Positions 4,338-51,529 of a stretch of DNA of 60,642 nt are shown one piece after another (the stretch's first letter is position 1; the number at the start of each line of letters is the position of its first letter). The position numbers were made by a program, and so were the translations under genes. The stretch lies in IMG/VR virus record IMGVR_UViG_2721755676_000007; one strand, written 5' to 3'. Under the pieces are notes generated by a model, which ran no database searches, had not been told where the DNA came from, and saw only the letters and a list, made by a program, of their open reading frames with translations. The DNA comes from a virus. Its lineage: Duplodnaviria; Heunggongvirae; Uroviricota; Caudoviricetes.

Positions 4338-7300
4338 TCAGCTGATACTGATGCCTGCGGTGGCTTTCTTCATCACCACAACCAGCAAATCGCTGATACT
4401 TGCTGTGGGATACCAGTCATTTACCAGCCATGCTGACACCGAAAACTCCAGCGTCATGTGGCCGTGACCAGCTGGCATATCAATAACACCACTGTAAATC
4501 AGCGTATTATCCAGCGCGGTACGGTTATAAATTTCAGCACCATTTTTCTTCACTATCAGGCGGCATGACGAATAAATATCGTTATTCTCCCGCTCATGTT
4601 TAGCGCCGCAGAATGCCACCGCTGGAATAACAATTTGCCTGTCAAAAGGCTGATCGTCATAAATCCTGACGGTAATGGTCCCTGATGGCCACCGCTCCGG
4701 TGCCCGGGAGTCCCGCGGGAAAGCCTTACCCACTGTTTTGACAATATCGCCTTCAATCTGATTGGCTGACAGTTTCCCCTTAATCTGACAGTTCTCATTA
4801 ATCGTGACGTTGTTGAGCGTCCCGGAGTTCGCATTCACACTGCCACTGATATCCGCATTTTTAGCAGTCAGCTTTCCGTCCGGTGTCAGGGAAAATGCCG
4901 GTGGATTTCCACCGCTGGTAATGGTGGGGGCCGTCAGGCGTTTCAGGAACACGTCGTTCATGAATATCTGATCGCCCTGACCAACAAACATCGGTTTTGT
5001 GTTGCCATTCGCAGGATTAACCATCGCAATCCTGTCCGCCGCCAGCAGCACCTGACTCTGCATGCCGTCAGGGGTGTTCTCAATACCGGCACCAATACCC
5101 GCGATATAAAGGCGTCCGTCCTGCATCTGCTGCAGCTTCACAGCCCACATGCTGTTCAGGTTATTATTTGTATCAACCTGAACCTTCTGTATCTGCTGAA
5201 TTGCCGCACTCTGGTCTTCCAGTTTCTTATTGACGGTCTGCGTGATTTCATTGCTGACATCCGTAATGGACGTCCTGATTTCAGCCAGGTCAGGCGCAAG
5301 CTGACCGTTATCAATCTGCGTCCACAGCTCCTGAGCCAGATGGGTTTTCCCTATCTCGCCTTTGAAAAAATCCAGATAGCCGGATGCATCATCACTCGGC
5401 TGACCAACAGCCTCCACGAATGCCGATTTGCCAACGGTGTTCACACTGCGAACGTAAAAATAATAATCATGGCCCGGTTTGATATTGATACTGGCGGCTA
5501 TCCAGTACAGCGCCGTGCCAAGATAGCGGGCTGTGGTTTCAACCTGCCTGATATCGGTAATCCGCTTTTCCGAGAACCAGAACTCAAACTGTACCGTCGG
5601 GTCATAAACGGCAAGATGCGGCGTGGCGGTTATCTGAAAATAGCCCGGCGTCAGCTCAATCCGCGACGGCACTGCAGGTGCGGCAATCCGGAACGATACC
5701 GATGCCGGATCGCCCTGCTGCCCCCACGCATTTACCGCCCGGACTGTCAGCCTGTAGTTCCCCAGCGCCAGCTGCCTGAAGCGGTATGTGGTTTCTGTCG
5801 TCCGGGCCGTGCTGACCAGCCGCTCACTGCCGTCGTCCGCTGCCACGGTCAGGCGAAGCATAAAGCTCACGCCCTTCACCACCTTCGGTGTGTCCCATCG
5901 CGCCAGCACCTGATATTCCCCGCTGTCTGCGGTGACTTCTGCGGTCAGGTGCTGCACCGCTGGCGGCGTGACACCATTTACCGTGCCGCTCTGGTCGCCG
6001 TCAAAGTGCGCCCCGTTATCCACGATGGCCTCTTTTTCCGGTACATGCTGCACGGCGGTGATGGCATACGTGCCGTCGTCGTTCTCACGGATACTCACGC
6101 AGCGGAACAGGCGCTGGCGCAACGTCGGCAGCTTCAGCCCCCATACGCTGTATTCAGCAACGCCGTCAGGAACACGGCTCACTTTCACCTTCACGCCGTC
6201 GGTGACGGACTGAACCTCCACGCTGACCGGATTGCCACTTCCGTCAACCAGGCTTATCAGCGTGGTACCGGAGGATGGCAGCGTGATTTCACGGTCGAGC
6301 GTCAGCGTCCGGGTCTGGCTGTTCACAGCCAGCACGCGACCACCGGTGCTGATACCGGCATAGTCATCATCGCAGATTTCAATAACATCGCCCGGCACAT
6401 GGCGAAGCCCTTCTGCGCCCACGCTGAAATCCACGGTCTGCGTCTCCAGCAGTTCCGTTTTAATCAGCCACAGCCCGGCGCGGTGTGCCTGCCCCCGGCT
6501 GGTACAGCCAAAGGCATCCATCTTCGTGACATTACGACCGTAACGGGCAATGGCCTGCGTATCTTCAACAAGCTCTGTCGCCGTCTCCCAGCCGTTGTTC
6601 GGGTCAATCCAGTTCACCTCAACGGCATTATGGCGGTCCTTCAGGGCGCTGAAGCTGTAGCGGAACGGCGCGCCATCATCCGGCATCACCACATTACTGC
6701 GGTTATAGGTCCACGCCTTATCCGACGGTCGGTCCTGCACAAACGTCAGCGTCTGCCCGTTCCATACCGGCATACAGCGCATCGCCGAGCAGAAATCACT
6801 GAGCACATCCCACGCCTTACGCTGTGTGGTCAGCCAGGCATTACAGGTGATGCGCGGCTCCGTGCCGCCAAAGCCGTCCGGCACCGACTGGTCGCAATTC
6901 TGGCCGATGACATACAGCGCCCATTTATCCACATCCGCCGCACCAAGACGTTTCCCCATGCCGTAGCGTGGATGGGTCAGCATATCCCACAGACACCAGG
7001 CCATGTTATTGCTGTATGCTGGCTTAAACGTTCCGTCCCAGATACCGCTGTATTGCCGCGTCTGCGGGTTATAGTTCGACGGCACCTGCAGAATACGCCC
7101 GCGCAGATGATAATTACGGCTCACCTGCTGGCTGCCGAACTGCTCCGAATCCACCTGTACGCCGACCAGTGCCGTGTTCGGGTAGCACTGTTTCACATCG
7201 ATGATTTCGGTGTATGACGACCAGAGCGTTTTGTTCTGCAGCTGATCTGTGGTGCTGTCCGGCGTCATCCTGCGCATCCGGATATTGAACGGGCGCGGCG

Positions 7301-18206: not shown

Positions 18207-18920
18207 CCGGGACTGCAGTGTCTCCCGGACGTCATCCGGAAGATGGCTGTAGGGGTTGCCATCCACCTTATGGCTGCCGCTGTAAATCAGCGTGATTTCC
18301 ACACCCTGTTTCTCCAGGGCAGCACCGTAATTACTGTGAGCCATCATGACGCCGATGGAGCCTGTCCGGGCGGTCTGCGTGACCAGACGCCGGGAGGCGG
18401 CACTGGCAAGCAACTGACCTGCACTGCAGTTCATGTCGTTGGCCAGCGCCCATACCGGTTTTATGTCACGCACACGGGCGATGATGTCAGCGCAGTCAAA
18501 TGCCCCCGCCACCATCCCGCCGGGCGTGTCCATATCGAGCAGAATGCCGTCCACCATCGGATCGCTGGCAGCCTGTTGCAGACGGGCGATAATGCCGTTG
18601 TAACCGGTCATCCCCGAGTACGGCTGCAGCGCCCGCGTCCGGCTGACCAGCGTGCCGGACACCGGCAGCACGGCGATGCCGTTCATGACCTGATAACTGC
18701 GGGCCTGTCGTGGTCCGTCATCATCACCGGATAATGCCAGCGTCGCGAGTGCCTCCTGGGCAGTCAGGCTGTCGCCGGACACCGCATCCGTCAGGCGGCT
18801 GATCCCAAGCTGGCCTGCAAGCGCACAAAAGAAAACCCGCGCATAGGCGGGTTCAAGCATCAGCGGCTCATTAAAGGCCATACTGGCAATATGCGGGAGA
18901 TTACGCAGCTCTGCTGTCAC
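17601..18920 (-). CDS. C: Prohead protease / scaffold protein C (S49/ClpP-like)
   Basis: 1320 nt as in lambda C when started at the GTG at 18918-18920 (TAELRNLPHIASMAFNEPLMLEP); an in-frame ATG exists further upstream at 19055. Confidence 0.85.
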   Translation of the reverse strand: MTAELRNLPHIASMAFNEPLMLEPAYARVFFCALAGQLGISRLTDAVSGDSLTAQEALATLALSGDDDGPRQARSYQVMNGIAVLPVSGTLVSRTRALQPYSGMTGYNGIIARLQQAASDPMVDGILLDMDTPGGMVAGAFDCADIIARVRDIKPVWALANDMNCSAGQLLASAASRRLVTQTARTGSIGVMMAHSNYGAALEKQGVEITLIYSGSHKVDGNPYSHLPDDVRETLQSRMDATRQMFAQKVSAYTGLSVQAVLDTEAAVYSGQEAIDAGLADELVNSTDAITVMRDALDARKSRLSGGRMTKETQSTTVSATASQADVTDVVPATEGENASAAQPDVNAQITAAVAAENSRIMGILNCEEAHGREEQARVLAETPGMTVETARRILAAAPQSAQARSDTALDRLMQGAPAPLAAGNPASDAVNDLLNTPV

Positions 18921-19680
18921 TCTTCTCCTCCTCTGTTGATTGTCGCAGTCCGGATTCAAATGCCGCAGCCGCCCAGGCGGGCGGTTTAAGACCGGCTGCG
19001 CGGCGCTCCATCGTTTCACGGACCTGCTGGGCAAAAATTTCCTGATAGTCGTCACCGCGTTTCGCGCACTCTTTCTCGTAGGTGCTCAGTCCGGCTTCTA
19101 TCAGCATCACCGCTTCCTGAACTTCTTTCAGACCATCGATGGCCATACGACCGGAGCCTATCCAGTCGCAGTTCCCCCAGGCACTGCGGGCTTCCTGAAA
19201 ACTGAAGCGCGCTTTTGAAGGTAACGTCACCACGCGGCGAACGATGGCCTCTTCCAGCCAGCACAGAAACATCTGGCTCGCCTGACGGGATGCGACGAAT
19301 TTTCGCCGCCCCATAAAGTACGCCCACGACTCGTTCGCACTGGCCCGTGCCGTGGAGTAGCTCATCTGGGCGTAATTCCGGGAAAGCTGCTCATACGAGA
19401 CACCCAGCCCGGCAGCAATATACCGCAACAGTGACTGCTCAAATACGGAGTAGCCGTTATCCGTGTCCTGAGCCGTCTGCAGGTTCAGTGAGTCCCCCGG
19501 CATCAGGTGCGGCACTTTTGCGCCTCCCAGCCGGACCGGTGCTGCGGCGTAATACGCGGCAATTTCACCAATCCAGCCAGTCAGCCTTTCCCGCTGCTCC
19601 TGACTGTTCGCGCCCAGAATAAAATCCATCGCTGACTGCGTATCCAGCTCACTCTCAATGGTGGCGGCATACATCGCCTT
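18901..19680 (-). pseudogene. B: Portal protein B, C-terminal fragment (separated from its N-terminal part by the 10.9 kb insertion)
   Basis: Reads ...KA-MYAATIESELDTQSAMDFILGAN... to a C-terminus ending EEEKSDSRAA as in lambda B; upstream sequence beyond 19680 is unrelated. Confidence 0.9.
19673..19680. repeat. Left copy of the 8-bp junction direct repeat ATCGCCTT (att core or target duplication)
   Basis: Identical octamer at 30572-30579; both copies read K-A-(M/I) in the B frame. Confidence 0.85.
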
Positions 19681-19754: not shown

Positions 19755-19777
19755 GCAATACACACTGCAATACACGA
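19755..19777. repeat. Two direct copies of GCAATACAC(A/G) near the left end of the insert (candidate integrase arm sites)
   Basis: tcGCAATACACAcTGCAATACACGa; three copies of TGCAATACACA occur at the other end (30381-30434). Confidence 0.5.
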
Positions 19778-20107
19778 TTATTTATAAGATGAGCGGCATC
19801 CGTCATAAAGCTGGTGGATGCTTTTTCTATGCATATATGCACAGTTTTAGTGGGCGTTAATGTCGATATAGGGATCCCCATATCGAGATTGGATACCTGG
19901 CTTTTTTCCGGTTAACCTTTAATCAGGCTGGTGGGCTTTACCTGTTTTGTATGAGTGGTCATCATGACCATGTCATAACAAAAACCCCATATTCGTGGTT
20001 TTTCTGTGTCGGGCTATTCTGTCGTTGCTGTGCTGATTTGGCTGGTGGGCTGAATCATCATTACGGCGATGCAGCTATGTAGACGTTCCGGCCTCCTCAA
20101 ATTGAGG

Positions 20108-20245
20108 ATTGTGGAAGAATCAATGGGTTAGTCTTACTTTCCCGACATCCCCCAATGGGGGTTTTCGAAACAATCAATAGCTTAGGCTTACTTCCCCGAT
20201 TTCCTGCATTGCAGGTTTTCGAAATAATCAATGGGTTAGGCCATC
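20108..20245. repeat. 54-bp tandem repeat, about 2.5 copies, each unit containing a short hairpin palindrome
   Basis: AATCAATGGGTTAG / AATCAATAGCTTAG / AATCAATGGGTTAG at 20118, 20172, 20226; palindromes CCCCCAATGGGGG (20149-20161) and CCTGCATTGCAGG (20203-20215). Confidence 0.7.
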
Positions 20246-20489
20246 GTGCAATTTTGCACTTTGCCAGCCAGCGCAATGTCGCGTTATCAGTCCTCAGATG
20301 TGAGGGATGTAGCCAGCTTTTCCCCCAGTGGGGGATATCCAGCACCGACGGCTTAACTGTGCGTGCCAGCACAAGGTAGCCTTGAACTACTTACTGCATC
20401 CCATCTTACAGGCCGTGCCTTCCTGCTTAACTTTTTGCAATGCAACAAGTCAGCCAGCGCAATTTTGCGTTATCGGGAATATCAGCAAG

Positions 20490-20771
20490 TTACCGCCGCA
20501 ATCGTTCCGGCTTCTTCCACTGGTAAGTATTTTTCGCGCTCTCCCTCCGTTGTTGAGAACGGCGACGATATGCCAGCAACTCAAGGACTCTTGTTCGTAT
20601 GTTGCGCATATCCACGCCGTTAAGCTCAATACCGTCACGGCGCATCACCTCAGCCACTACACGCACATAATTATCTGCGGTCACGCTGTCCGGCTGCGTG
20701 GCCTGTTCGTCATGCTGCTTGCTGATTCCACAAGCACGGCGGATTAATCGCAGTATTTCGGATTCAGTCAT
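20490..20771 (-). CDS. Hypothetical protein (93 aa), satellite-encoded
   Basis: ORF downstream of the Nu1-like gene in the same orientation; no recognisable motif. Confidence 0.45.
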   Translation of the reverse strand: MTESEILRLIRRACGISKQHDEQATQPDSVTADNYVRVVAEVMRRDGIELNGVDMRNIRTRVLELLAYRRRSQQRRESAKNTYQWKKPERLRR

Positions 20772-20782
20772 AGCGTACTACG

Positions 20783-21337
20783 TTACTTATCTTTATTCGG
20801 CTGCAACTTATCCGGTACGTTTCCGGCAGTTTCCATCAGATAATCGGACAGCATCAGCGGTATGTTTTCGTCAAGTTTTGCGCATGCGTTACAGGCTCTG
20901 ATAACTTCTTTTTTCAGTCCATCCAGCATAGACGGCTTCATGTCGGGAAACTTCCTTGTCATGGCAAGCGGCAGGCTGTCCATGATTGAAGAAATCTGAC
21001 TCGCCAATTTTGAAAGCACGTATATACAAAACGCTGTATCAATAACGTCGCCGCGTTCGCGCTCGTTTTTAAGCTCCTGCGCCTCTGCCTGTGCTGTCAG
21101 CAATCTGATCCTGACTCGTAGAAGTTCATCATCATCAATCTCGCCTTTGTCGTCTGTAATCTGGTTAATTGCATTGCTAACCCGATTGTCTATTACGCTG
21201 GCAACATCATAAAACGCCTCGCGGCCTTTACGTTCAACGGGAGTCACTCCCCACTTGTCGAACGCTGTCGCACTTACACGGCAGCTTTGCGCCATGTTTT
21301 TTTTGTTCATCAGGTGCGATTTCATCAATATCCCCAC
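20783..21337 (-). CDS. Terminase small subunit homologue (Nu1-like), satellite-encoded
   Basis: C-terminal half aligns with lambda Nu1 (DTAFCIYVLSKLASQISSIMDSLPL vs ETAFCTFVLSRIAGEIASILDGIPL); sits about 120 bp downstream of the satellite cos; start may be the internal MNKKNM at 21310. Confidence 0.8.
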   Translation of the reverse strand: MGILMKSHLMNKKNMAQSCRVSATAFDKWGVTPVERKGREAFYDVASVIDNRVSNAINQITDDKGEIDDDELLRVRIRLLTAQAEAQELKNERERGDVIDTAFCIYVLSKLASQISSIMDSLPLAMTRKFPDMKPSMLDGLKKEVIRACNACAKLDENIPLMLSDYLMETAGNVPDKLQPNKDK

Positions 21338-21436
21338 TTAAGTAATGTTTCAGGTTGGTGTATTGGCTTTATCTTTTCCTTTTTATTCATAGAGATAGAG
21401 CGAACAACAAAACCACCACCAGCACCCGAAAAAGGC

Positions 21437-21502
21437 TCATAAATAGCGAAAACCCGCGAGGTCGCCGCCCCGTAGCCTACCGGATCACCGGAAAGGACCC
21501 GC
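21437..21502. other. Satellite cos site (cosN 12-mer at 21459-21470)
   Basis: 66-bp block with 4 mismatches to the prophage cos block at 34202-34267; contains the reverse complement of GGGCGGCGACCT; flanking cosB-side sequence differs. Confidence 0.8.
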
Positions 21503-21526
21503 CAGCCAGAGCGGGCCCTAATTTCA

Positions 21527-21910
21527 TCAACCAATCAGCTTATAGCGACCATCCCGTGCATTGCGGCGTACACGCTCAATCTTGAGGCATAGCGCCGCAT
21601 CTGGCTTTTTTGGGACAGGTACGCGGCAATATTCAGAAGCGCGAGGAATATTATTTATCCAGTCGATCACTTCACTTAAATACCAGGCCTTACGCCCTTC
21701 CGTAACCTGCACACGCTCCGGGAACTCTCCACTAGCCTCAAGGTTTAGCAGTGTACGACGACTCAGGGTTGTAATTTCCATCACCTGATTCATATCAACA
21801 AGGCGCTCGCTTAAACACATTTTGTCAGCGATAGCTTTTAATTCCTCTACAGCTGGATTCGGGTACATCATTTCGGCAATTGGCTTAAGGTCATTGTAAT
21901 CATTCTGCAT
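21527..21910 (-). CDS. AlpA-family HTH regulator (127 aa)
   Basis: C-terminal region ITTLSRRTLLNLEASGEFPERVQVTEGRKAWYLSEVIDWI resembles AlpA/excisionase-type HTH. Confidence 0.55.
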   Translation of the reverse strand: MQNDYNDLKPIAEMMYPNPAVEELKAIADKMCLSERLVDMNQVMEITTLSRRTLLNLEASGEFPERVQVTEGRKAWYLSEVIDWINNIPRASEYCRVPVPKKPDAALCLKIERVRRNARDGRYKLIG

Positions 21911-21921
21911 TGTATCCCCCT

Positions 21922-22263
21922 TTACACACGAGCCAGCGGCTGAACAGAAATACCTGAGCCAACAAACGCTGCAACCTTTACTGACAGTTCTTTAACAGAC
22001 TCAGGCCAGTTCAGAGCATCAACATTTAAGACACCTGTCTTATAGACCTGAGCCTGTGTTTTTTTCGCGGTGTCGATTTGTACAGCGGAAACATAAACCG
22101 CTTTACCTACGCTCGAACCATCCCATACCACCAGTGCACCTGTTGCATCTTCCTGCATCAGTGGCGTAAATGCAGGAATTACCCCTTTATTAGCTGAAAA
22201 TATCCCCAGCGTAGTCACCAGTGCTTCAGTGCCAGCCATGAGTTCAGTGTAATGAGTAGCCAT
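21922..22263 (-). CDS. Head decoration protein D paralogue, satellite-encoded
   Basis: 113 aa; aligns with lambda D over VWDGSSVGKAVYVSAV...YKTGVLNVDALNWPE vs [17 protein letters not shown]...[15 protein letters not shown]. Confidence 0.7.
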   Translation of the reverse strand: MATHYTELMAGTEALVTTLGIFSANKGVIPAFTPLMQEDATGALVVWDGSSVGKAVYVSAVQIDTAKKTQAQVYKTGVLNVDALNWPESVKELSVKVAAFVGSGISVQPLARV

Positions 22264-22272
22264 TGCTCCCCC

Positions 22273-23319
22273 TTAGCCAATGCGAACGGTAACAAAACGA
22301 TTGATGCGGGCCGGTATTGGCTGTGGTGCTGAATGTGTCTGCACATATTCAATAGCCGGATCACCAGGCACAATATAGTTTTTCGGTGCAAGTTCGGCTT
22401 TAGTCAGCCCCATTCGGATTAGCTCCGGATCCTGAATACCGCCATAGGCGACAATCCCCTGAAGAGCCGTATTGCCAAGCACCATCAAATCAGGATCAAG
22501 GAAATGTTTTTCTGTTCCGTCCTCGTCGGTATAACGCCCGCTGTAAACAACAATCGCAACATCGCCCATATACCCTTTAAAACTCACCGAATCACCAAGG
22601 TCTTTAAGGGCCGTTTCCAGTTCGGAATTAGAACCACGACGGGTATCCAAAGCCTCTTTTATCGCTCTGAATGAACGGTATTTCTTCCATACATTACCAC
22701 CCATAATGATGATATTAGTGACGCCCTCACTAAATTCTGCGTAGCTCTCAATATCATCATTTGGATCAAAAGTTTCTTTATCCTTACCTGACCACTCAGT
22801 ACCGCCAGACTGAGTGATGATATTTTGTGGTTTTATATTCCAGTCCAGCTCATAACGTTCAATACCATCGCCCTCAATGATATTTTTCCCCGTTGTGATT
22901 GCCTGAACAGCAAGCCATTCAATACGTGCACGAATAGCTTTAGCCTGATTTACAATCGCCTGTTTAACTTTAATATTACGCGCCCCAAAAGCATTGTATT
23001 GCTCAGGTGACACACCAGCAGGGCGCACAGCTAACTTATTTGGATCAATGCTGCTTTTCGGCTTCATATAACCTGGACGAATTGTTTTTGATTCGTATCC
23101 CTCATCTCGTGAAACTTTACTGCCCACCATAGGAGAGCAAAACGCCGCGATCGGGATATTTGGATCGTCGATCGTATCAAGAATAATGTCTCTCGATTCA
23201 AACATTACCGAGCGAGTGAAAAACAAACTGGTAAACAACGCATTTAATTTTTTTTGCACATCTTCAGCATTAGCCACCTGCACAAGCTGTGTAGGCGAAT
23301 ATAAATCAACCATACTCAT
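22273..23319 (-). CDS. Major capsid protein E paralogue, satellite-encoded
   Basis: 349 aa from MSMVDLYSPTQL; conserved blocks ITQSGGTEWSGKDKETFDPNDDIESYA and LDTRRGSNSELETALKDLGDSVSFKGYMGDVAIVVYSGRY match lambda E. Confidence 0.85.
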   Translation of the reverse strand: MSMVDLYSPTQLVQVANAEDVQKKLNALFTSLFFTRSVMFESRDIILDTIDDPNIPIAAFCSPMVGSKVSRDEGYESKTIRPGYMKPKSSIDPNKLAVRPAGVSPEQYNAFGARNIKVKQAIVNQAKAIRARIEWLAVQAITTGKNIIEGDGIERYELDWNIKPQNIITQSGGTEWSGKDKETFDPNDDIESYAEFSEGVTNIIIMGGNVWKKYRSFRAIKEALDTRRGSNSELETALKDLGDSVSFKGYMGDVAIVVYSGRYTDEDGTEKHFLDPDLMVLGNTALQGIVAYGGIQDPELIRMGLTKAELAPKNYIVPGDPAIEYVQTHSAPQPIPARINRFVTVRIG

Positions 23320-23530
23320 CCTCTTTACATTCATTACAAATAATTGTGAATATATTCTATTACCGATGTCTGCTATGCGAACACATGCAACCAAGTGCAA
23401 TGTTGTATAAAATATGCCGTAACAACTTCAGTGCTGATAATTCGTGTTAATGTATTTACTTCCTTTGGTCGGGATTTATGTAGCATGCCGGAAAATCTAT
23501 TTTTTTCCGGCATCTTTTTGTTTGCAGAAT

Positions 23531-23953
23531 TTAAAACGGTATATTATCGCCGTACGGATCATCATTCCCCGACTGTTGTTTTGCCCTGTTCAGTGCGTCA
23601 GTGGCCTGCCCCTGCTGGCCTTTTTTGCCGCCCGGTCGCGCCGTTCGCGCACTGATTACGCTGTCTGCGATAAGCTGCCAGCCCCGCCGCGTTTCGCCGT
23701 TCTGGCCTGTCCACTGGCTTACCTGCATGTTACCCGCCACGCTCACCAGTTCGCCTTTGTGGTGTTTTGCCAGTGCGTCGGCCTGTCTGCCAAACGCCAG
23801 GACGGATAACCACATCGTCGCCGTTCCGTCATCTGCCTGGCTGCACGGCAGGGGAACCGCCATACTCGCCATCGCCATTTGTGTCCCTTTGCTGGTGGTC
23901 TTTAACTGCGGGTCAGCCACCAGCCGCCCGTAAGCCGCTATCTGTGCTGTCAT
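23531..23953 (-). CDS. ssb: Single-stranded DNA-binding protein (SSB-like)
   Basis: 140 aa with OB-fold-like N-terminus, Gly/Gln-rich linker and acidic C-terminal tail ending DNIPF (SSB tip DDDIPF). Confidence 0.7.
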   Translation of the reverse strand: MTAQIAAYGRLVADPQLKTTSKGTQMAMASMAVPLPCSQADDGTATMWLSVLAFGRQADALAKHHKGELVSVAGNMQVSQWTGQNGETRRGWQLIADSVISARTARPGGKKGQQGQATDALNRAKQQSGNDDPYGDNIPF

Positions 23954-24264
23954 GCTGTCTGCTCTCCGGTTTTAACATTGATGGTTGTCACCTGTTCCGC
24001 TTCGGCAATCTCCCGTTCTGTCAGCGTGGCAAAGTTTGCCGCTGCTGTGGTCATAAATGCGCTTATCAGGTCGGGATGTTCCTTCGCGTATCCTGCCCGT
24101 GTGTGGTGGTCTATCGCTTTGATTGCCACCTTTAAGGAAAGCTCTGTCATGTCTAACGCTTTATATTTTGCCTGTGTTCTGTCTCTGCGAATTTTGGTCA
24201 TTTGTCGCCCCTGATTCATGTTTTCGGCTGGCATGTTTGTTAAGTGATTTTTATGTATGCGCAT
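23950..24264 (-). CDS. Hypothetical protein (104 aa)
   Basis: ORF coupled to ssb (ATGA overlap), immediately downstream of the iteron region. Confidence 0.45.
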   Translation of the reverse strand: MRIHKNHLTNMPAENMNQGRQMTKIRRDRTQAKYKALDMTELSLKVAIKAIDHHTRAGYAKEHPDLISAFMTTAAANFATLTEREIAEAEQVTTINVKTGEQTA

Positions 24265-24315
24265 TTATTTTCACCCCCCCTCGTTTAAAAAGTTTTTAGT
24301 TGTGCCTCCCCCCCC

Positions 24316-24537
24316 TCTACCCATCTACCCGAATGCTCATCATGTCAGTAATGGCGCCGCTTTCAGCGGGTAGATAGCTTTTTTGACTCCTCTACCTGCC
24401 GTCTACCCTGCTACCTGAAACTGATAAAATCAGGTAGAAGAGGTAGAGAGCTTTTATTAGCCTTCTACCTAGCCCTATACCCACTTATCATGTTGAATAA
24501 TATGCGTTTATTTCGTTCAGGTAGATGGGGTAGATGG
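24316..24537. repeat. Iteron array (GGTAGA / TCTACC repeats), candidate satellite replication origin
   Basis: At least 12 copies of the hexamer in both orientations immediately downstream of the primase gene. Confidence 0.7.
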
Positions 24538-24550
24538 CTTTTACAAAAAA

Positions 24551-26305
24551 TTATAAAAACGCGTCGCAATCGTCTGTTGTAATTGCGTTGGTCTGCGTTA
24601 CTCCCTTAACTTTTCGCGTAATATATTCATGCCCGTAAACTTTCGCCGCTGGCTTCATGGCCTTGCTGAACTCAGCCACGTTTAGCGGTTTGCTCCTGCC
24701 CGCGTATGCCATAAACGCCAGATAGACGCGGTAAAGGCTGTTCCTGGTCGTGTACTTCACTGAATCACCACCGCCACCCATCATCAGGCCGCGCGCTTCC
24801 TCCAGAAAATTCAGGAACTGGCAAAACTCAATAACCGGATCCGTCTGTTGCTTTATTGCCAGTGCTTCATCACCGTCACGCTGTTCCAGTAGTAAAGCCC
24901 GTGCCTTCTCAGGGTCGGTAAAGTTCGCCAGCAATCGGCGGATAATAACGGGGATTTCAGCCGCAATCTTTTCCGGTAGCTCCCTGTCTTTTTCGGCCTC
25001 ACTGACGATATTGTCGAAACGGAAAATCACGCGACGACGTGCCACACCTCCGGCCCGTTCGGTGAATATCATCGGGTTGTTGTTGGTCGCCAGCACCACC
25101 GCCCTGATTACCGCCGTGAAACGCTTTTCATATTTCGGGTTAATTTCCACGGGGTCGCCGCCTGTGATTTTCTTGATGCCCGTTCCTTCGCCTGTATATT
25201 TCGGCTGGTCAGCCAGGACGATAAGACGACTCCCGACAACCTGCGCACGTCCACCAGCATCATCAAGCGATGTCATTTCAGCGCTTACCGTGTTCTGTTT
25301 CCCTGCCAGAAGGCTGGCTATGTGTGTGAATGTACTTTTACCGCTCCCGCCGTCTCCGGTGGCCTCAATAAACATCTGCCAGTCGTACCGGTTCGCCATA
25401 ATCATGTACAGCGCGGCACATATACGCATCATCTTGCGCGGGTCTTTTCCGGCTGCGTGCTCAAGCCATTTATGAAAGTTTGGCGCGTTATCGCGGATGT
25501 TCTCCCCTGGTGCTGGTGGCGTGTACTCAATGCCGTTGTGCGTGGTGATCCAGTTCTCCGGCGTGTGCGGGGAAAATTCCCCCGTTTTCAGGTCAAGCGC
25601 ACCATTGGCGAACGGCAGCAAATCGCCAGACGGCTCGCCCATTGGTTCGGCAATAACTTTTAACGCTTCCACGGCGTTATTGATTACGCGCTTGCTGAAA
25701 GTGGCCCTGTGCTCTGAATAGATCGCCACCATTTCGCGGCTAAGTTCCATTGTGCTGACCGGACACCATACCCCGCCGCGCCATACGTGAACGATTTCAC
25801 TTTCAGGATGTACGCAAACGCCATCAAAGCGATCGGCAAGCAACTGCGCGCGCTCACTGTCCGCCATCTGCGAAAGTTGCGCCTTTTGCTTTACCGGAAG
25901 CTCAATGACCAGACCATCAGAAAGATTCTGGCGTTCACGGGCCAGATATTCGCGCCAGTTCTGCACCTCCTGGCCGTGCATACCCTCAGGATAAAAATTT
26001 GCATCCTGTACGCCTGCTGCCGCCAGCTTCTGACCAATCGCCTTTATCATTACAGGCGCAAGATATCCGGCCCTGTATATGCGTGCTGATTTTCGGCCTT
26101 CCGGCACAATTTGCAGATTATCCAGTTCGGATAGCTGCTGCTCCCCAAGCCACACAGGAGGCTCATTATCTCCGGCCATACGCGCATCATGTTCCTGCCA
26201 TTGTTTCGCGTGTGCCCAGGCATCACTACCCGCAAAAATAATTACTTCTGTTCCTTTGTGTTTTATGCCGCGTGACTGCTGTTTTACGTTCGGTGCCAGT
26301 TTCAT
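24551..26305 (-). CDS. P4 alpha-like primase/helicase (D5 family, Walker A GDGGSGKST)
   Basis: 584-aa ORF with P-loop NTPase core and phage/plasmid primase C-terminal-type architecture. Confidence 0.8.
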   Translation of the reverse strand: MKLAPNVKQQSRGIKHKGTEVIIFAGSDAWAHAKQWQEHDARMAGDNEPPVWLGEQQLSELDNLQIVPEGRKSARIYRAGYLAPVMIKAIGQKLAAAGVQDANFYPEGMHGQEVQNWREYLARERQNLSDGLVIELPVKQKAQLSQMADSERAQLLADRFDGVCVHPESEIVHVWRGGVWCPVSTMELSREMVAIYSEHRATFSKRVINNAVEALKVIAEPMGEPSGDLLPFANGALDLKTGEFSPHTPENWITTHNGIEYTPPAPGENIRDNAPNFHKWLEHAAGKDPRKMMRICAALYMIMANRYDWQMFIEATGDGGSGKSTFTHIASLLAGKQNTVSAEMTSLDDAGGRAQVVGSRLIVLADQPKYTGEGTGIKKITGGDPVEINPKYEKRFTAVIRAVVLATNNNPMIFTERAGGVARRRVIFRFDNIVSEAEKDRELPEKIAAEIPVIIRRLLANFTDPEKARALLLEQRDGDEALAIKQQTDPVIEFCQFLNFLEEARGLMMGGGGDSVKYTTRNSLYRVYLAFMAYAGRSKPLNVAEFSKAMKPAAKVYGHEYITRKVKGVTQTNAITTDDCDAFL

Positions 26306-26601
26306 TTTTTACCTCTGAATCCGTTAATCATGGTTTTCATTTTCTGGATATTTCCCCACGCTTTTTCCCTGCTGATGGGCTTACTGCGGGGTGCGGCATA
26401 TACCAGGGAAAAATCACGCCGGAACTGATAAACAGGCATCACGCAGTCATAGCTATACCCCTCACGGCGGTAAGTGATGCGCCGTTCTGCCACGCCTTTA
26501 ATCGTTACCGTGCCGCCGTATTTATCGCGGTAAATATCGCCGTTCATAAATTCAGGTCGAGCGGGGCCGCTGGCAATAAAGCCAGAATTTTTCATTTCCA
26601 T
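26302..26601 (-). CDS. Hypothetical protein (99 aa)
   Basis: ORF coupled to the primase start (overlap at 26302-26305). Confidence 0.45.
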   Translation of the reverse strand: MEMKNSGFIASGPARPEFMNGDIYRDKYGGTVTIKGVAERRITYRREGYSYDCVMPVYQFRRDFSLVYAAPRSKPISREKAWGNIQKMKTMINGFRGKK

Positions 26602-26618
26602 ATTATTTATTCCTCGAC

Positions 26619-26840
26619 TTAACTCGACTTATTTGATAGCAGGGCACTATTTATTGCGTCATTGAGTTTTTCTGCTGATTCATCAATAAGTGACAACAGG
26701 CCATAAGCAATATTTGCATCTTCATTGTCATTTATGCAATCAAGCCACATATTTAATATTGCTTTTGCTGAATTATTTAAAGTTAATGAACTTTCTGCAC
26801 ATGCTAACAATTTAAAAAAGACTTCCCGTTCTGTATTCAT
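26619..26840 (-). CDS. Hypothetical protein (73 aa)
   Basis: Small ORF in the same operon orientation. Confidence 0.4.
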   Translation of the reverse strand: MNTEREVFFKLLACAESSLTLNNSAKAILNMWLDCINDNEDANIAYGLLSLIDESAEKLNDAINSALLSNKSS

Positions 26841-27032
26841 TTAATCCCCCACCAGCTTACTTTCTTCCTCAATCAAAAAACTAGCGACACTTCCCGAAAG
26901 ACGCGCCAGTAGGCTCGCCAGTGCGGATATATCAGCATCTGTAATTTTGTTCGGGTATACCTCAAGAAGGCGGCAAATAATTTCTGTCTGGTGCGCACGT
27001 TCAGCGGCTTCGTGTAATGTAATTTCCTGCAT
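26841..27032 (-). CDS. Hypothetical protein (63 aa)
   Basis: Stop/start overlap with the next ORF at 27032. Confidence 0.4.
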   Translation of the reverse strand: MQEITLHEAAERAHQTEIICRLLEVYPNKITDADISALASLLARLSGSVASFLIEEESKLVGD

Positions 27033-27217
27033 TAATGCACCTCTTTTAATTCATACACTGCTGAAATAATGACTTGTGATAAGCCATATTCTGATGATTC
27101 GCTTCTCACCGCAGCAATAGCCGTCTGAACATTAACAGCCTTCACATTCTGAGCGATACCAATTGTGTGGCCTATTGGGTTAACAGCTCGGGCAAATACA
27201 CGGAAGGTTTTAAGCAT
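27032..27217 (-). CDS. Hypothetical protein (61 aa)
   Basis: ATG preceded by GGGAG-type Shine-Dalgarno; first gene of the leftward operon. Confidence 0.45.
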   Translation of the reverse strand: MLKTFRVFARAVNPIGHTIGIAQNVKAVNVQTAIAAVRSESSEYGLSQVIISAVYELKEVH

Positions 27218-27597
27218 GACTCACTCCCTGGCGGATTTTTGCAGCGAATACAGCAACACAACCGGACGGGCAACGGCTACGCGCTTCGCGTTCCGTCCAG
27301 GCGGTTACGTGGATGATTTGAGATTCTCCGGCACTCAGTGCCAGAAAACGCCACACAAAGGCCGTTTGTGTGTGTACAAGGTGTGGTATATGATTTACAG
27401 CAACCATAACGGCTCCTAGTTTACGTTGTTGGTTAGACGCCCCGTATGTGTTCCCAGCACTGCGGGGCGTTGCTCTTTGTATTTCAACAATCCTTTCGGT
27501 GTGTTTCATGTTATGAGCGCATGAAACACACGTCAAGGCTTTTTGTATTTCTTTTTTTGTGTATACTGAAACACACCGATGATTAGGAGTTTCAGAA

Positions 27598-27903
27598 ATG
27601 GCAACGGCTAACAAAAACGCAAAATCACAACTGACAACTGTCAGAGTCCCACTAGATGTTATGCAAGGGATGGAATCCGTTAAGCTGGACGGTGAAAGCA
27701 ATGCCGGATTTATCGTAACCGCCATGCGCGGAGAAATAGCCCGCCGCCAAGCAGAAGGCAGCGGAGAAAATCCCCTTGTGTCGTCACTGGATGCCCTGGC
27801 TAAGGTCGAACAAATCGGCATCAAAGCAGCCGAGGAGATCGGGCAACTCGTCACCGTCGCGCGTGAAGAACTCCAGCGACGCAAGGTCAAAGAGCATGAA
27901 TAG
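27598..27903 (+). CDS. Small DNA-binding-like protein (possible ribbon-helix-helix), the only plus-strand gene in the satellite
   Basis: 101 aa; AGGAG 8 nt upstream of ATG; divergent from the small-ORF/primase operon across 27218-27597. Confidence 0.5.
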   Translation: MATANKNAKSQLTTVRVPLDVMQGMESVKLDGESNAGFIVTAMRGEIARRQAEGSGENPLVSSLDALAKVEQIGIKAAEEIGQLVTVAREELQRRKVKEHE

Positions 27904-28236
27904 CCAATATCAGCGCCATAGTTTGAGGAACGCAGGCGCATTGCTTTACAGGACAGCACCATGAGCGACACAGAATCAACCAAAACACCATCACCAACTC
28001 GTAAGAGACGACGCAAAAATATAGCGCATGAACATGAATCAGAAAGATTCGCACCTTGTTCGTTTGCTCTTGAGAAATTCCTTAAAGAGCACAGGAAAAA
28101 GCTCTCGTTGCAAACCTTGGAACGAACCAAATCTGGCTGATCACATTGCCCACCAGCCGCAAATGTGGCATTGTTGGTGATGCTTTTGTTTTCCCTTGTT
28201 CCCACTGGCGACCCTTTTGCGGTCGCCTTTGTTTTG

Positions 28237-28560
28237 TCACTGAATGCGGTTACCAAAGTAAAACTCAGGCTGATATTCACGTATCAGCGTTTTTTCTTCT
28301 TCCTCCAGCTCACGCTTTTTGCGCTTACATGCCTGTAGCTCCCTCCCCTTCTCGCTGGCACTTATTTGATATTGCTCTTTACGGCGGGAAAAATCCTGTA
28401 ATGCACCCCACGGGATACCATAAGTCCCCGTTTTTCTGATACCTGGTATCACATTTCTGAATACCCAGTTACTGAAACGATGAGCAAATGTGCCAGGCGT
28501 CGTTGCTTTGCGGCTGCGGGCTATTAGTTTGTAGAAACCTGACTCAGAGATAATTCTCAT
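28237..28560 (-). CDS. Bro-N domain protein, C-terminal part (split ORF)
   Basis: SESGFYKLIARSRKATTPGTFAHRFSNWVFRNVIPGIRKTGTYG is the second half of a Bro-N domain. Confidence 0.6.
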   Translation of the reverse strand: MRIISESGFYKLIARSRKATTPGTFAHRFSNWVFRNVIPGIRKTGTYGIPWGALQDFSRRKEQYQISASEKGRELQACKRKKRELEEEEKTLIREYQPEFYFGNRIQ

Positions 28561-28814
28561 ATTCTGATTTCCTCCTGGGTGTAAGTTAAATTTACTCCCT
28601 TTTCATCATCATCAAGCATCTGCAACGCCGTACGCGAATTGGTTAGTTCCAGCGCAGCACAAACATCTTTTGCAACAAACCACGGATCGCCGTTCAGATA
28701 CACCACACGAACGTTCACACTATCAAAGCGCAGAACGACGAGATCACGAATATCGCAGAATTTTTTCACTGGACGAGCGTACCCCTTGCCCGTCACGGCA
28801 ATATTTTTATTCAT
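28557..28814 (-). CDS. Bro-N domain protein, N-terminal part (split ORF)
   Basis: DPWFVAKDVCAALELTNSRTALQMLDDDEKG is the first half of a Bro-N domain; ends GGAGGAAATCAGAATATGA overlapping the next start. Confidence 0.6.
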   Translation of the reverse strand: MNKNIAVTGKGYARPVKKFCDIRDLVVLRFDSVNVRVVYLNGDPWFVAKDVCAALELTNSRTALQMLDDDEKGVNLTYTQEEIRI

Positions 28815-28870
28815 CGCGTTTTTACCTTATAGACAAAAAACCCCTCGTGATGAGGGGCATTATTTACTGG

Positions 28871-29128
28871 TTATTGCTGTTTTGTTTTTCCAGGTTTCCA
28901 TCCAGGATGCCACTCACCACGGATCCATGCCTGAACCTCTGAAAGTCGATACCCTGCAGCACGTTCACCGATCTTGATACGTCGCGGGAATTTACCTGCC
29001 TGCTCCATTTTCCAGCGTGTTGAGTTTGCCAGCGTGGTAAGTGCTATGCACTCTTTTTCACGAATGAACCGATCAATGTCCTTCATTGTGCGCAAATCGT
29101 TTTCATCAACAAGAGAATAAATTGCCAT
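28871..29128 (-). CDS. alpA: AlpA-family transcriptional regulator / excisionase-like
   Basis: 85 aa directly downstream of the integrase, typical P4/CP4-57-type int-alpA pair. Confidence 0.7.
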   Translation of the reverse strand: MAIYSLVDENDLRTMKDIDRFIREKECIALTTLANSTRWKMEQAGKFPRRIKIGERAAGYRLSEVQAWIRGEWHPGWKPGKTKQQ

Positions 29129-29129
29129 A

Positions 29130-30371
29130 TCACACCACCTCTTTATTAAGCTCGATAACGTTGTTGTTAAATCCTGCTATCGTATTAAGGTAATTAACCC
29201 ACATATTAAGCACCTCAAGTTTTTTCTTTATATGCCTGCTTTTATTGTAAACACCAGCAACCCCTTTCACTTTATGACCTAAAAGAAGTTCGACAATATA
29301 AGGATCCGCCCCCATATCATTAAGCGTAGTGGAAAATGTGCGCCTGAAATCATGTATGCACCACAAGCCATTAGTATCATGACCAAGACGCCTGCATATT
29401 CTGTTTGCAGCCCCTGTTATTGTCGCCCTTTGCAAAGCACAACCGACAACATAACCGCGATTTTTTGTTTCTGCGTAAAGATTAACGATCCATTGTTTTA
29501 TTCCGTCAGGAACAGGCCTTACTATAGCCTCCTTGTTTTTGCTGTGCTCTTTTGGGACTGTCCATACCCAGTTTTTTAAATCCCATTCGTCCCAGGTGGA
29601 TAGCCTCGCCTCCTGCTGTCGGCAACCAAACACCAGGCAGATAACCATTATTCTTCGGTTATATATTGATGACAGAGTTAGCAAATTATTACCGTAAGCA
29701 TAAGACCATACATCAGCGGTTTCATTGATATTAAGAACGCGATCCCTTATACCGGATGAGCGCCCGACATAACTTACGTTAATATCTCCAAAGGGATCGC
29801 ACGCGATGTATTGCCTGACGCGACAAAAACGCAACGCCTGTTTGATATCAAGAAAAATTGCACCAGACATAACAGGCGCATTTTTTTTGATCCTGTCAAA
29901 GACGGTAAGCCATGTGTGTAATTTGCACTGTTCTATAGCCATATCACCGATATAGGGGAAGATATGCTTTTCAAATCGTTTTATTAAATATTCATGCTCT
30001 TTTCTGGCTGTTGTGGCGTGATTGTCGTACCAGTAAAACAGCGCATCCCTTACGGTCACTGGTTGCATAGTTTTTTCGGCAGCAAGTTTTATTTGCCTGC
30101 GGGGGTCCAGATTTTCAGCCAGCCATTCACGGCACTGATCACGCATGCGCCTGGCCGTTGCAAGAGACATGTCAGGATAGCGACCAAGTGTAAGCCATAC
30201 CGGAGGGGATTCCCTGCCACCAAGACGATAGTAAAAAACAAAGCTGATCCCCCCAACCATGCTTACACGCACAGACAACCCGCGCCCATCCGCTATTGTT
30301 TTTTGTTTGTCCTGCCGTTTTCCGACAAGACTCTTTAACAGTTTGTCACTGAGTTTGTTTTCAATAGCCAT
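29130..30371 (-). CDS. int: Tyrosine integrase, P4-type
   Basis: 413 aa; N-terminal GRGLSVRV...GGISFVFYYRLGGR arm-binding-type domain; C-terminal HDFRRT...LLGH...Y catalytic signature. Confidence 0.88.
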   Translation of the reverse strand: MAIENKLSDKLLKSLVGKRQDKQKTIADGRGLSVRVSMVGGISFVFYYRLGGRESPPVWLTLGRYPDMSLATARRMRDQCREWLAENLDPRRQIKLAAEKTMQPVTVRDALFYWYDNHATTARKEHEYLIKRFEKHIFPYIGDMAIEQCKLHTWLTVFDRIKKNAPVMSGAIFLDIKQALRFCRVRQYIACDPFGDINVSYVGRSSGIRDRVLNINETADVWSYAYGNNLLTLSSIYNRRIMVICLVFGCRQQEARLSTWDEWDLKNWVWTVPKEHSKNKEAIVRPVPDGIKQWIVNLYAETKNRGYVVGCALQRATITGAANRICRRLGHDTNGLWCIHDFRRTFSTTLNDMGADPYIVELLLGHKVKGVAGVYNKSRHIKKKLEVLNMWVNYLNTIAGFNNNVIELNKEVV

Positions 30372-30380
30372 TAAAAGCCC

Positions 30381-30434
30381 TCAAGAGATTTGCAATACAC
30401 ACCCATCCCGATCGCCAATTTGCAATACACATTG
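30381..30434. repeat. Three direct copies of TGCAATACACA upstream of the satellite integrase (candidate arm-type sites)
   Basis: Copies at 30381, 30411 and 30424; same motif twice at the opposite end of the insert. Confidence 0.55.
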
Positions 30435-30571
30435 CAATACACAAAACCGCGAAAAACTGGAAGGGTGATGAACGGTCATCAAAAGCATGGAAAACGACAT
30501 TCCAGACGCAGCAAGGGTTTCAGTGGAGTTGGCGAACGATGCGGGCAACTACGGTGAGATGATAGACATAA

Positions 30572-33500
<2,929 letters not shown>

Positions 33501-34434: not shown

Positions 34435-34668
34435 ATGTCAACGAAGAACAGAACCCGCAGAACAACAACCCGCAACATCCGCTTTCCTAACCAAATGATT
34501 GAACAAATTAACATCGCTCTTGATCAAAAAGGGTCCGGGAATTTCTCAGCCTGGGTCATTGAAGCCTGCCGCCGGAGACTGTGCTCAGAAAAAAGAGTTT
34601 CTCCTGAAGCAAACAAAGAAAAGAGTGACATTACTGAATTGCTCAGAAAACAGATCAGACCAGATTGA
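34435..34668 (+). CDS. Small hypothetical protein (77 aa, possible ribbon-helix-helix)
   Basis: ORF between cos and the DUF1398 gene, antisense to the late operon. Confidence 0.4.
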   Translation: MSTKNRTRRTTTRNIRFPNQMIEQINIALDQKGSGNFSAWVIEACRRRLCSEKRVSPEANKEKSDITELLRKQIRPD

Positions 34669-50956: not shown

Positions 50957-51529
50957 TCATATTGCCCCCAGCATGGTGGTAACCATCGCCATCAATGGAC
51001 CAGCCAGATCAGGATCCACACGAAACATCGACACAATGCCTTCACTCATCTCCTTCAGTTTCTGGTGGCGTGGTGCGTTGAGAATGACCGCCTGTTTTGC
51101 CTCGCTGAGCTCCTTTTCCATTTCAACCAGTCGAGCCATGAAGCTATCCTGCTCAACCAGGTGGCCGCGATATTTCAGCGGTAGTACTGCCAGAATTGCT
51201 GGAGTCAGTTCACGCACGTTATTTCGGTATTTTTCAGAATCGAATTTGTTATCGAGAAAGCGGAACAGCTTCTGGCGTGCACGACTGACATCATCAGGAA
51301 AATCGATAGTGCCGCCGCCCTGTGCTCGATACTCATTCACAATGAGTGCGGCAACGACATCCTGATTATCTACAGCCGACCAGGCGCGGACGGCATCACG
51401 GATTTTTTCGTGGCCTGGCACCTGTTTTATTTGAGAACGATTTATCACCGCAGTCGGGATAAATCCGCTAGTCTGTTGGTATGTAATTGGTTGCATAATT
51501 GATTCCTTTAGTCTGAATTGACTGTTCAT
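50957..51529 (-). CDS. YdaT-like protein (occupies the cII position)
   Basis: 190-aa ORF between the Cro-like gene and O; family assignment from memory only. Confidence 0.45.
   Translation of the reverse strand: MNSQFRLKESIMQPITYQQTSGFIPTAVINRSQIKQVPGHEKIRDAVRAWSAVDNQDVVAALIVNEYRAQGGGTIDFPDDVSRARQKLFRFLDNKFDSEKYRNNVRELTPAILAVLPLKYRGHLVEQDSFMARLVEMEKELSEAKQAVILNAPRHQKLKEMSEGIVSMFRVDPDLAGPLMAMVTTMLGAI

Follow-up and report, generated by a model that had tools for sequence, protein, structure and literature searches.

A predicted repressor-operator array and antisense RNA at the head of the replication operon of a helper-embedded phage satellite

How is the replication operon of a Gram-negative phage satellite controlled? 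The question is raised by the 60,642-nt IMG/VR record IMGVR_UViG_2721755676_000007, called the window here in its full length. This DNA is from E. coli and carries a helper-embedded phage-inducible chromosomal island (PICI) inside the portal gene of a lambdoid prophage, a class already published in 2023 by Tommasini, Mageeney and Williams (PMC10111431). Such elements are composed of Integration, Bro, Replication and Late zones (PMC10111431), and the region studied here is the boundary between the Bro and Replication zones. An earlier note, made from the letters alone, had proposed that a divergent-promoter switch lies there. Comparative evidence (phased operators over both promoters, their co-variation with a protein beta-strand, and a module swap) upholds that outline, but its details were wrong, because an Icd-like gene, a plus-strand RNA element and a second plus-strand open reading frame (ORF) had been missed. 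On balance we favour the reading that positions 27210-28237 are a regulatory module of the PICI, in which a repressor of the YlcI/YnfO family would act on five operators, O1 to O5, together with an antisense RNA to the first gene, icd.

The note had described four minus-strand small ORFs chained into the primase gene and separated by a 380-bp gap (27218-27597) from a sole plus-strand gene of 101 codons. The four ORFs and the primase are all present (Table 1). The gap is not empty: it holds part of the Icd-like ORF, the true intergenic region is 27408-27597 (190 bp), and the control region had been doubled in size because this first gene was missed. The plus-strand gene, ylcI, does have a good Shine-Dalgarno sequence (AGGAG at 27585-27589), but it is not alone; with a 59-codon ORF (orf59) and an intrinsic terminator it forms a bicistronic rightward unit. 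Nor do the small proteins lack recognisable motifs, as three named families are represented (Icd-like NF033153, DUF4222 PF13973 and YlcI/YnfO NF041551). The ratio of non-synonymous to synonymous variation (pN/pS), computed per ORF against relatives, gave a purifying pattern for most ORFs, including ylcI (0.06-0.39; differences by codon position 403/300/1322) and icd (0.13-0.5); the 73-aa ORF had too few variants.

The proposed search of the intergenic region for promoter and operator motifs found both a sigma-70-type promoter and a phased array of five sites. The leftward promoter, P_L, was the sole sigma-70-type match in the region and agrees with the consensus at 9-10 of 12 positions. Its position is conserved across the repeat types described below, and its equivalent in the related locus L019 reads TTGACA-17-TAAAGT. 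The array consists of five operator-like copies of 9-11 bp, three strong and two weaker, with start-to-start spacings of 22, 22, 22 and 23 bp and the core TGT(G/A)TTTC. With at most one mismatch, GGTGTGTTTCA occurs three times in the 60.6 kb, always inside the same 80 bp of the intergenic region, and no strong copy of the motif was found elsewhere in the window. A candidate rightward -10 for ylcI is bracketed by O4 and O5 and reads TATAAT in Xenorhabdus and Photorhabdus relatives. The array overlaps both divergent promoters, and we propose that YlcI binds it.

The placement of the sites bears on what such binding would do. Some ribbon-helix-helix (RHH) proteins, AmrZ for example, can activate, and a rightward promoter without a -35 element might need help, so YlcI could be an activator or an architectural factor of the divergent promoters. 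We consider this highly improbable, because sites in the spacer and over the -10/+1 of a near-consensus P_L occupy the classic position for repression. The same geometry argues against the idea that ylcI and orf59 are an autoregulated toxin-antitoxin-like or addiction pair (an RHH antitoxin with a small basic toxin), in which the operators would serve autoregulation only and their overlap with P_L would be incidental. Four of the five copies are upstream of the rightward -10 and two bracket the leftward -10, which autoregulation would not need. In addition, orf59 begins 57 nt downstream of ylcI without overlap, has a weak coding signal (pN/pS 0.41-0.60), and has no match to a toxin or any other family in Pfam, NCBIfam or PADLOC and only to a PHROG of unknown function. 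It is annotated by PGAP in relatives and has a homologue in EcCICFT073, the prototype Gram-negative PICI. An addiction pair is an improbable explanation of this locus, if a less strained one than activation.

The protein and the sites are linked by co-variation, which we followed in 98 related loci. Nine types of YlcI beta-strand occur among them; the architecture is constant, but each type comes with a distinct repeat, of which de novo motif searches recover 3-6 phased copies. The strand LTTVRV is paired with GGTGTGTTTCA, SLTARI with GTGTAAG, MTTIRV with GTGAGATAC and QxNARF with GG(T/G)ATTCA; EcCICFT073 supplies a tenth type, ALKARV with GGTGTGGCCCAC. Between types the repeats change but neither the promoter hexamers nor the T-rich spacers move, and in a cross-matrix of motifs against types sharing is limited to related ones (LTTVRV/LFTVRV, LKNIRI/VKNVRI and QLNARF/QINARF). 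A 5' core of GGTG, GGTA or GGG is retained in all repeat types, which would fit the invariant Arg16 of YlcI.

A natural swap bears on which gene the repeats go with. Between loci L004 and L019, identity is 95-100% over the stretch that begins with the primase and includes icd but 43-66% across the operator array, and the N-terminal strand of YlcI differs. The repeats are therefore tied to YlcI and not to the replicase. This matters because 22-bp phasing is typical of plasmid iterons and the RHH proteins ParG and omega bind centromere arrays, both of which would suit replication iterons or a partition site. However, the repeats change while the replicase stays nearly identical, and RefSeq annotation of the element contains no ParA-type gene. 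There is also a separate cluster of GGTAGA-type iterons, unlike the operator repeats in sequence, in the 286-bp region between the primase and the genes downstream of it. It is the probable replication origin of the satellite, PICI origins being known adjacent to the primase (PMC10111431). On the swap and this cluster we rejected the intergenic repeats as iterons, and we give the iteron or partition-site reading almost no credence.

Profile searches and structure prediction, also suggested at the outset, matched the small proteins to families and yielded an RHH-like model for the 101-aa protein, in agreement with the RHH N-terminus suspected for it. The AlphaFold (AF2) model, built with a 35-sequence alignment (predicted local distance difference test score, pLDDT, 83), has a strand at residues 10-17, helices at 19-28 and 35-55 and a long helix at 59-100; residues ~10-55 form the beta-alpha-alpha fold, some 45 residues long and opening with the strand, that characterises RHH domains. 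In the alignment, residues 11-15 and 17 are the most variable, S10, R16 and P18 are invariant, and the C-terminal half is highly conserved. The NF041551 match (63.3 bits against a cut-off of 30) spans residues 9-50, corresponding to an N-terminal 42-residue profile, and some sources label homologues 'Arc-like DNA binding domain-containing protein'. Curated RHH profiles gave no significant match to YlcI (sub-threshold hits to PSK_trans_fac only, best E 0.001, in 27 of the 35 members), hhalign against P22 Mnt was insignificant (probability 1.2%), and Foldseek of the model against the PDB returned no match; sequence searches of the PDB with YlcI, the DUF4222 protein and Icd gave nothing useful. 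With profiles below significance, the RHH assignment is drawn from the fold prediction, the NCBIfam family and the names used by some sources. The model supports YlcI being an RHH protein with a long C-terminal helix, through which it probably oligomerises. The helper prophage has a YlcI/YnfO gene of its own (34435-34668, plus strand; 77 aa; NF041551 E 6e-9, 35.7 bits), which lies opposite to the late operon beside Nu1/cos and shares 24% identity with the YlcI of the satellite in the RHH part.

The second component of the module is an RNA element over the start of icd. A conserved hairpin (27436-27471), preceded by an invariant GGTTAGA, sits between the icd start and O1, and its structure is favoured on the plus strand. 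In all 23 distinct versions of the hairpin the plus-strand fold is the stabler (-21 to -28 versus -12 to -23 kcal/mol). The 89-nt plus-strand stretch has a minimum free energy of -33.6 kcal/mol and a z score of -3.66, compared with -0.89 for the minus-strand leader. In an 18-sequence alignment the share of paired cells is 95.2% for the plus strand and 82.2% for the minus strand; more than 40 cells hold a G-U pair on the plus strand where the minus strand has C-A, and the minus strand has no G-U pairs. Five pairs carry changes on both sides. The RNAalifold consensus adds a preceding stem-loop (SL1), whose outer stem relies on plus-strand G-U pairs (GU:17, UG:9) and whose loop holds CUCCU, complementary to the icd Shine-Dalgarno sequence (AGGAG at 27413-27417); the conserved hairpin is the second stem-loop (SL2), a terminator hairpin.

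A covariance model built from 22 sequences gave 98 matches over 100 loci, all on the ylcI strand; it matched locus L082 twice and was without a match in L016, L017 and L075. In L082, an IMG/VR contig, some 790 bp separate the copies (1988-2076 and 2774-2862), suggesting that the module was duplicated in tandem. Outside the training set the model scored 71.5 bits in EcCICFT073, 65.5 bits in OI-51 and 67.6 bits in the capsid-forming PICI (cf-PICI) vB_KppS-Ant, where the element lies inside a 324-aa Eta-like ORF just before its Icd-like domain. In EcCICFT073 the predicted RNA maps to NC_004431 1380763-1380852 on the complement strand. The OI-51 hairpin passes a terminator scan (15 pairs, tail GCTTTTTTAA). 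The RNA element accompanies icd even without ylcI. The Rfam models for C4/CI/isrK RNAs (RF01695, RF01394) had no match at gathering score in the window, nor up to an E value of 5 in 26900-28300, and no other family matched in the region; these RNAs lie on the same strand as icd, whereas the structure here is favoured on the opposite one. A weak match to our model (22 bits) at 50882-50958 on the plus strand lies within the 5' end of the helper replication gene O and antisense to it; this hairpin, which has a U-rich tail, is possibly an oop-like RNA or a chance hit.

Upstream of the element, every icd N-terminal type has a TAnnnT hexamer, often following TGn, whose distance to the GGTTAGA anchor is constant at 36-37 nt. 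The -11A of the hexamer coincides with a codon wobble position and never varies, and two loci read TGGTATAAT at this site at the cost of a His-to-Tyr change. From these features we predict a cis-antisense RNA of ~85 nt over the ribosome-binding site and start codon of icd, with the hexamer as candidate -10. The hairpin could instead be a mere terminator or insulator against stray transcription into the control region, with no antisense RNA made. No plus-strand promoter upstream of the hairpin passed our consensus scan, and the candidate -10 is inside conserved codons, both as this alternative would have it. Yet SL1, which is upstream of the terminator, has G-U pairs on the plus strand only and the anti-Shine-Dalgarno sequence in or near its loop, the distance from hexamer to hairpin is constant despite a 6-nt displacement of the icd start codon among types, and the TGGTATAAT loci have their sequence despite its coding cost. 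We therefore think a terminator alone unlikely, while giving it more room than the other alternatives.

Several observations weigh against a module of repressor and antisense RNA. No good -35 was found by scan for the rightward promoter. The antisense -10 overlaps conserved His and Ser-Thr codons, and constraint on the protein could be the cause of its conservation. O1 overlaps the U-tail of the hairpin, which in the window is also interrupted (GUUGCUCUUUGUAUUU). The beta-strand and the operators are less than 100 bp apart, so their co-variation could partly be simple linkage in one mosaic block; the variable bases are nevertheless exactly the repeated bases. Finally, over-expression of AlpA alone induces EcCICFT073, which carries the module (PMC6092414), and any repression must therefore be overridable.

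In the mechanism that we propose, a YlcI-type RHH protein would occupy O1-O5. With O2 and O3 flanking the leftward -10 and O4 and O5 flanking its own, occupancy would shut the leftward operon (the icd-like gene, three small ORFs, the DUF4222/RgdR-family gene and the primase gene) and autoregulate YlcI. The ~85-nt plus-strand RNA would start in the first icd codons and end at the hairpin; its complementarity to the Shine-Dalgarno sequence and start codon of icd is complete, and it would keep the first cistron from being translated on transcripts that escape repression. Because the six cistrons are coupled, failure to translate icd would be polar on the primase. Induction would come from removal of YlcI or from read-through out of the AlpA-driven int-alpA unit upstream, a plausible route since our scan found no minus-strand terminator between the alpA/Bro unit and the studied region. 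A broader proposal, which we put forward tentatively and hold to be less probable than the module itself, is that Gram-negative PICIs, EcCICFT073 among them, carry a two-layer immunity module made up of a YlcI RHH master repressor, with swappable beta-strand and operator specificities that would define immunity types, and a cis-antisense RNA that gates the translation of icd and through it the replication operon as a whole.

Table 1. Features of the control region, the operon and the surrounding satellite (positions in the window)
Feature	Position	Strand	Sequence or composition	Basis or remark
Operator-like site O1	27478-27486	+	TGTATTTCA	Weaker copy; de novo phased array
Operator-like site O2	27496-27508	+	TCGGTGTGTTTCA	Covers -10/+1 of leftward promoter
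Operator-like site O3	27522-27534	-	GACGTGTGTTTCA on minus strand	Inverted copy; in leftward promoter spacer
Operator-like site O4	27544-27552	+	TGTATTTCT	Weaker copy; between both promoters
Operator-like site O5	27567-27579	-	TCGGTGTGTTTCA on minus strand	Inverted copy; directly after rightward -10
Leftward sigma-70-type promoter P_L	27508-27536	-	TTGACG (27536-31), 17 nt, TAACAT (27513-08)	Scan
Candidate rightward -10 for ylcI	27562-27567	+	TATACT	Position conserved in all types
Predicted antisense RNA	27401-27488	+	~85 nt; SL1 27402-34, SL2 27436-71, U-rich tail	
Candidate antisense -10	27384-27394	+	TGgTATATGAT	Inside icd codons 5-8
YlcI/YnfO-family protein, candidate repressor	27598-27903	+	101 aa	NF041551 E 1.6e-17
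orf59	27961-28140	+	59 aa, very basic	phrog_21027 E 3e-15
Intrinsic terminator closing plus-strand unit	28207-28237	+	7-bp GC-rich stem, then TTTGTTTTGT	Scan
Icd-like protein, first operon gene	27210-27407	-	65 aa	NF033153 E 1.2e-17; RefSeq annotation
61-aa ORF	27032-27217	-	61 aa	phrog_3672 E 9e-46; pN/pS 0.16-0.58
63-aa ORF	26841-27032	-	63 aa	phrog_1478 E 2.5e-34
73-aa ORF	26619-26840	-	73 aa	phrog_2196 E 1e-28
DUF4222/RgdR-family protein	26302-26601	-	99 aa	PF13973 E 9e-24, 83.2 bits (cut-off 27)
Primase/helicase-type replicase, last gene of chain	24551-26305	-	584 aa	Pfam D5_N 1.1e-15, DUF5906 5e-10, Pox_D5
Iteron cluster	24306-24543		At least 12 GGTAGA-type repeats, both orientations	Repeat search; directly downstream of primase
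AlpA-type helix-turn-helix protein	28871-29128			Pfam AlpA E 5e-14
Integrase	29130-30371			RefSeq annotation of NZ_CP028192 locus; Pfam
Portal gene halves, lambda-type, flanking satellite	30520-31401 and 18901-19674			

The leftward operon is a coupled chain of five small ORFs and the primase gene. The description of its members as joined by overlapping stops and starts is right for the 99-aa ORF and the primase, whose stop and ATG share the 4 nt ATGA, and for the 61- and 63-aa ORFs (1 nt); icd overlaps the start of the 61-aa ORF by 8 nt. The 63- and 73-aa ORFs abut with a gap of 0 nt, and the 73- and 99-aa ORFs do not overlap, being separated by 17 nt that contain GAGGA. All small ORFs match PHROG families at E 1e-28 or better apart from orf59, and for the 61-, 63- and 73-aa proteins these families are of unknown function only. 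The gene set between icd and the DUF4222 gene differs among elements. For the 63-aa ORF pN/pS is mostly 0.34-0.5, with a single 30-codon segment at 0.81, and for the DUF4222 gene it is 0.14-0.75. PADLOC recognised none of the seven small proteins as a defence component.

The first protein scores 63.7 bits against NF033153 (cut-off 25), a family labelled Icd-like host cell division inhibitor. A 356-aa minus-strand frame (27210-28280) that is in frame with icd and runs antisense through the intergenic region, ylcI and orf59 was considered as an Eta-like fusion; we rejected it on its composition, with much Ser, Cys, Arg and Leu, and on the substitution pattern, which favours third positions of the plus-strand frame (the codon-position counts given above). 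It recalls the Eta-Kil fusion of other PICIs (locus L102, 8578-9552). Within icd codons 12-19 the minus strand has a hairpin (27352-27372) followed by GCGUUUUCUG, resembling a terminator on the sense strand. It is restricted to icd of the window type (also in loci L002 and L003), for which reason the idea of a translation-sensitive attenuator was set aside; the hairpin may act as an attenuator in this lineage only, or it may simply mirror the W-R-F codons.

The 99-aa protein is modelled as a Tudor/SH3-like barrel, and its relatives are annotated rgdR. Because the DUF4222 gene invariantly overlaps the start of three unrelated replicase types, a role of this protein within the satellite cycle is suggested.

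The satellite is ~10.7 kb long in the RefSeq annotation of the NZ_CP028192 locus combined with Pfam matches. That locus is 99.2% identical to the window over 17 kb, and region 26200-28300 is 100% identical to NZ_CP028192 and dozens of further genomes. The element encodes an integrase, an AlpA-type helix-turn-helix protein, Bro-N, the studied region, primase, single-stranded DNA-binding protein (SSB), major capsid and decoration proteins, a helix-turn-helix protein and a TerS-like protein. Its int and alpA are co-oriented with the primase and late genes, its size is within the ~10-11 kb of Gram-negative and helper-embedded PICIs, and its insertion site is a late gene of the lambdoid prophage. 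A candidate att core is an 11-nt direct repeat, GCAATACACAC, at 19755 and 30392, the two copies spanning 19755-30402. In the minus-strand Bro-N gene (28237-28814) a 1-nt deletion in a G-run near 28577 leaves two ORFs where NZ_CP028192 has one 192-aa coding sequence, and this is either a pseudogene or a sequencing error. The helper prophage contains IS10 (42763-44033), recognised by RNA-OUT (Rfam, 99.5 bits) and a 402-aa transposase ORF.

The genes of the module recur in a set order. After int, alpA and a Bro or Ant gene come ylcI and a small ORF, both encoded on the other strand; next are the icd-like gene, between one and four small ORFs that vary, DUF4222 and the replicase. E. coli has this arrangement at more than one integration site and in combination with three kinds of replicase (D5-type primase, DUF927 and RepA helicase). 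The module also occurs in Xenorhabdus, Photorhabdus, Enterobacter, Erwinia, Serratia, Yersinia and others, in cf-PICIs and in 80 IMG/VR contigs. A query of the intergenic region plus ylcI matches 1383 of 5426 complete E. coli genomes, about a quarter. In 50,697 phage records, no YlcI-like protein was matched and an Icd-like protein was matched in one cf-PICI record only. EcCICFT073 has the module, with a YlcI of 59 aa that is the RHH domain alone. OI-51/CP-933C of O157:H7 retains the chain from icd to RgdR and the antisense-RNA element while ylcI is absent. Upstream of its TTGAC, OI-51 has two copies of a different direct repeat, GGTGACCAC(C/T)T (locus L002, 6098-6260), and its orf59 homologue (plus strand, 6488-6649) is inside an annotated 247-aa minus-strand gene.

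The kind of element, RHH repressors and cis-antisense RNAs are already known. In the literature searched, by contrast, the present module of Gram-negative PICIs appears undescribed, as do its modularity by immunity type and any role of YlcI/YnfO. In these PICIs AlpA is the activator and the existence of a repressor was left 'unclear' in 2018 (PMC6092414), and YlcI/YnfO and Icd-like proteins have been listed merely as accessory genes (PMC13612085). The literature searchable without subscription held no functional description of YnfO/YlcI/DUF3950, of the regulation of the EcCICFT073 module or of Icd-like proteins in satellites, and the PICI papers among it assign immunity functions only to C4/isrK-like RNAs of some elements, with no description of a ylcI, operator and antisense module. 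YlcI may be the repressor so far missing for Gram-negative satellites of this kind. If so, the module would supply the repressing counterpart of the AlpA activator, and it could explain the silence of satellites and the coexistence or exclusion of related ones; types of beta-strand and operator specificity could govern cross-immunity between them. PICIs are widespread vehicles of virulence and defence genes. The proposal also gives the uncharacterised YlcI/YnfO family its first functional hypothesis, with predictions testable in an established genetic system, and casts RgdR, known for its part in virulence regulation, as a conserved component of the replication operon of satellites.

Among known systems, the nearest functional analogues are immI of P22, the icd-gated operons of P1, P4 and N15, and the Stl-controlled divergent region of SaPIs. 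P22 immI has the RHH repressors Mnt and Arc, the sar antisense RNA and ant. Mnt consists of an RHH domain and a C-terminal oligomerisation helix. Like the module proposed here, immI combines small RHH repressors divergent from the controlled operon, operators over both promoters and a short cis-antisense RNA over a ribosome-binding site. The two loci differ in that no sequence relation was detected by hhalign, five sites phased at 22-23 bp are present here in place of one operator, the operon runs from icd to a primase and does not encode an antirepressor, and the host element is a satellite and not a phage. In P1, c4 RNA controls icd-ant by a translation block with polarity, and in P1, P4 and N15 the downstream genes depend on translation of the first cistron. 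The immI of P1/P7 (c4 RNA-icd-ant), P4 immunity (CI RNA within eta/kil) and the CA RNA of N15 resemble the arrangement proposed here in having a first cistron of the Icd/Kil type gated by a small RNA at its translation start. Their RNAs, by contrast, are processed from the icd strand and match Rfam C4/isrK, whereas the one predicted here is on the opposite strand and has no Rfam match. P4 immunity is summarised in PMC10111431, and the C4/isrK models match some PICIs according to Tommasini et al. (PMC10111431).

Other parallels come from the satellites themselves. In Staphylococcus aureus pathogenicity islands (SaPIs), the repressor gene (Stl/Rpr) is divergent from an excision/replication operon, str/xis-rep (PMC6092414), as the candidate repressor gene is here. 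Stl proteins are, however, large helix-turn-helix repressors relieved by helper proteins, in contrast to the 101-aa RHH candidate; in the present element, moreover, the replication operon has the same orientation as int and alpA, with AlpA known as an activator. RgdR (ECs1581) of O157:H7 OI-51 is 73% identical to the 99-aa protein and its gene has the same position, overlapping the replicase start; the two differ at residues 20-22, which are RGD in RgdR and NGD (N20-G21-D22) here. RgdR is an activator of LEE1 and a repressor of motility, and its DNA binding is weak and non-specific; its RGD motif is needed for the activation of type III secretion, which an R20N change lowered (PMC3378721). EcCICFT073, OI-51/CP-933C and the helper-embedded PICIs share with the present element the order of int, alpA, Bro zone, icd-like gene, small ORFs, DUF4222, replicase, SSB and late genes, and the helper-embedded PICIs also share insertion in the lambdoid portal gene, with no difference at the level of the element (PMC10111431).

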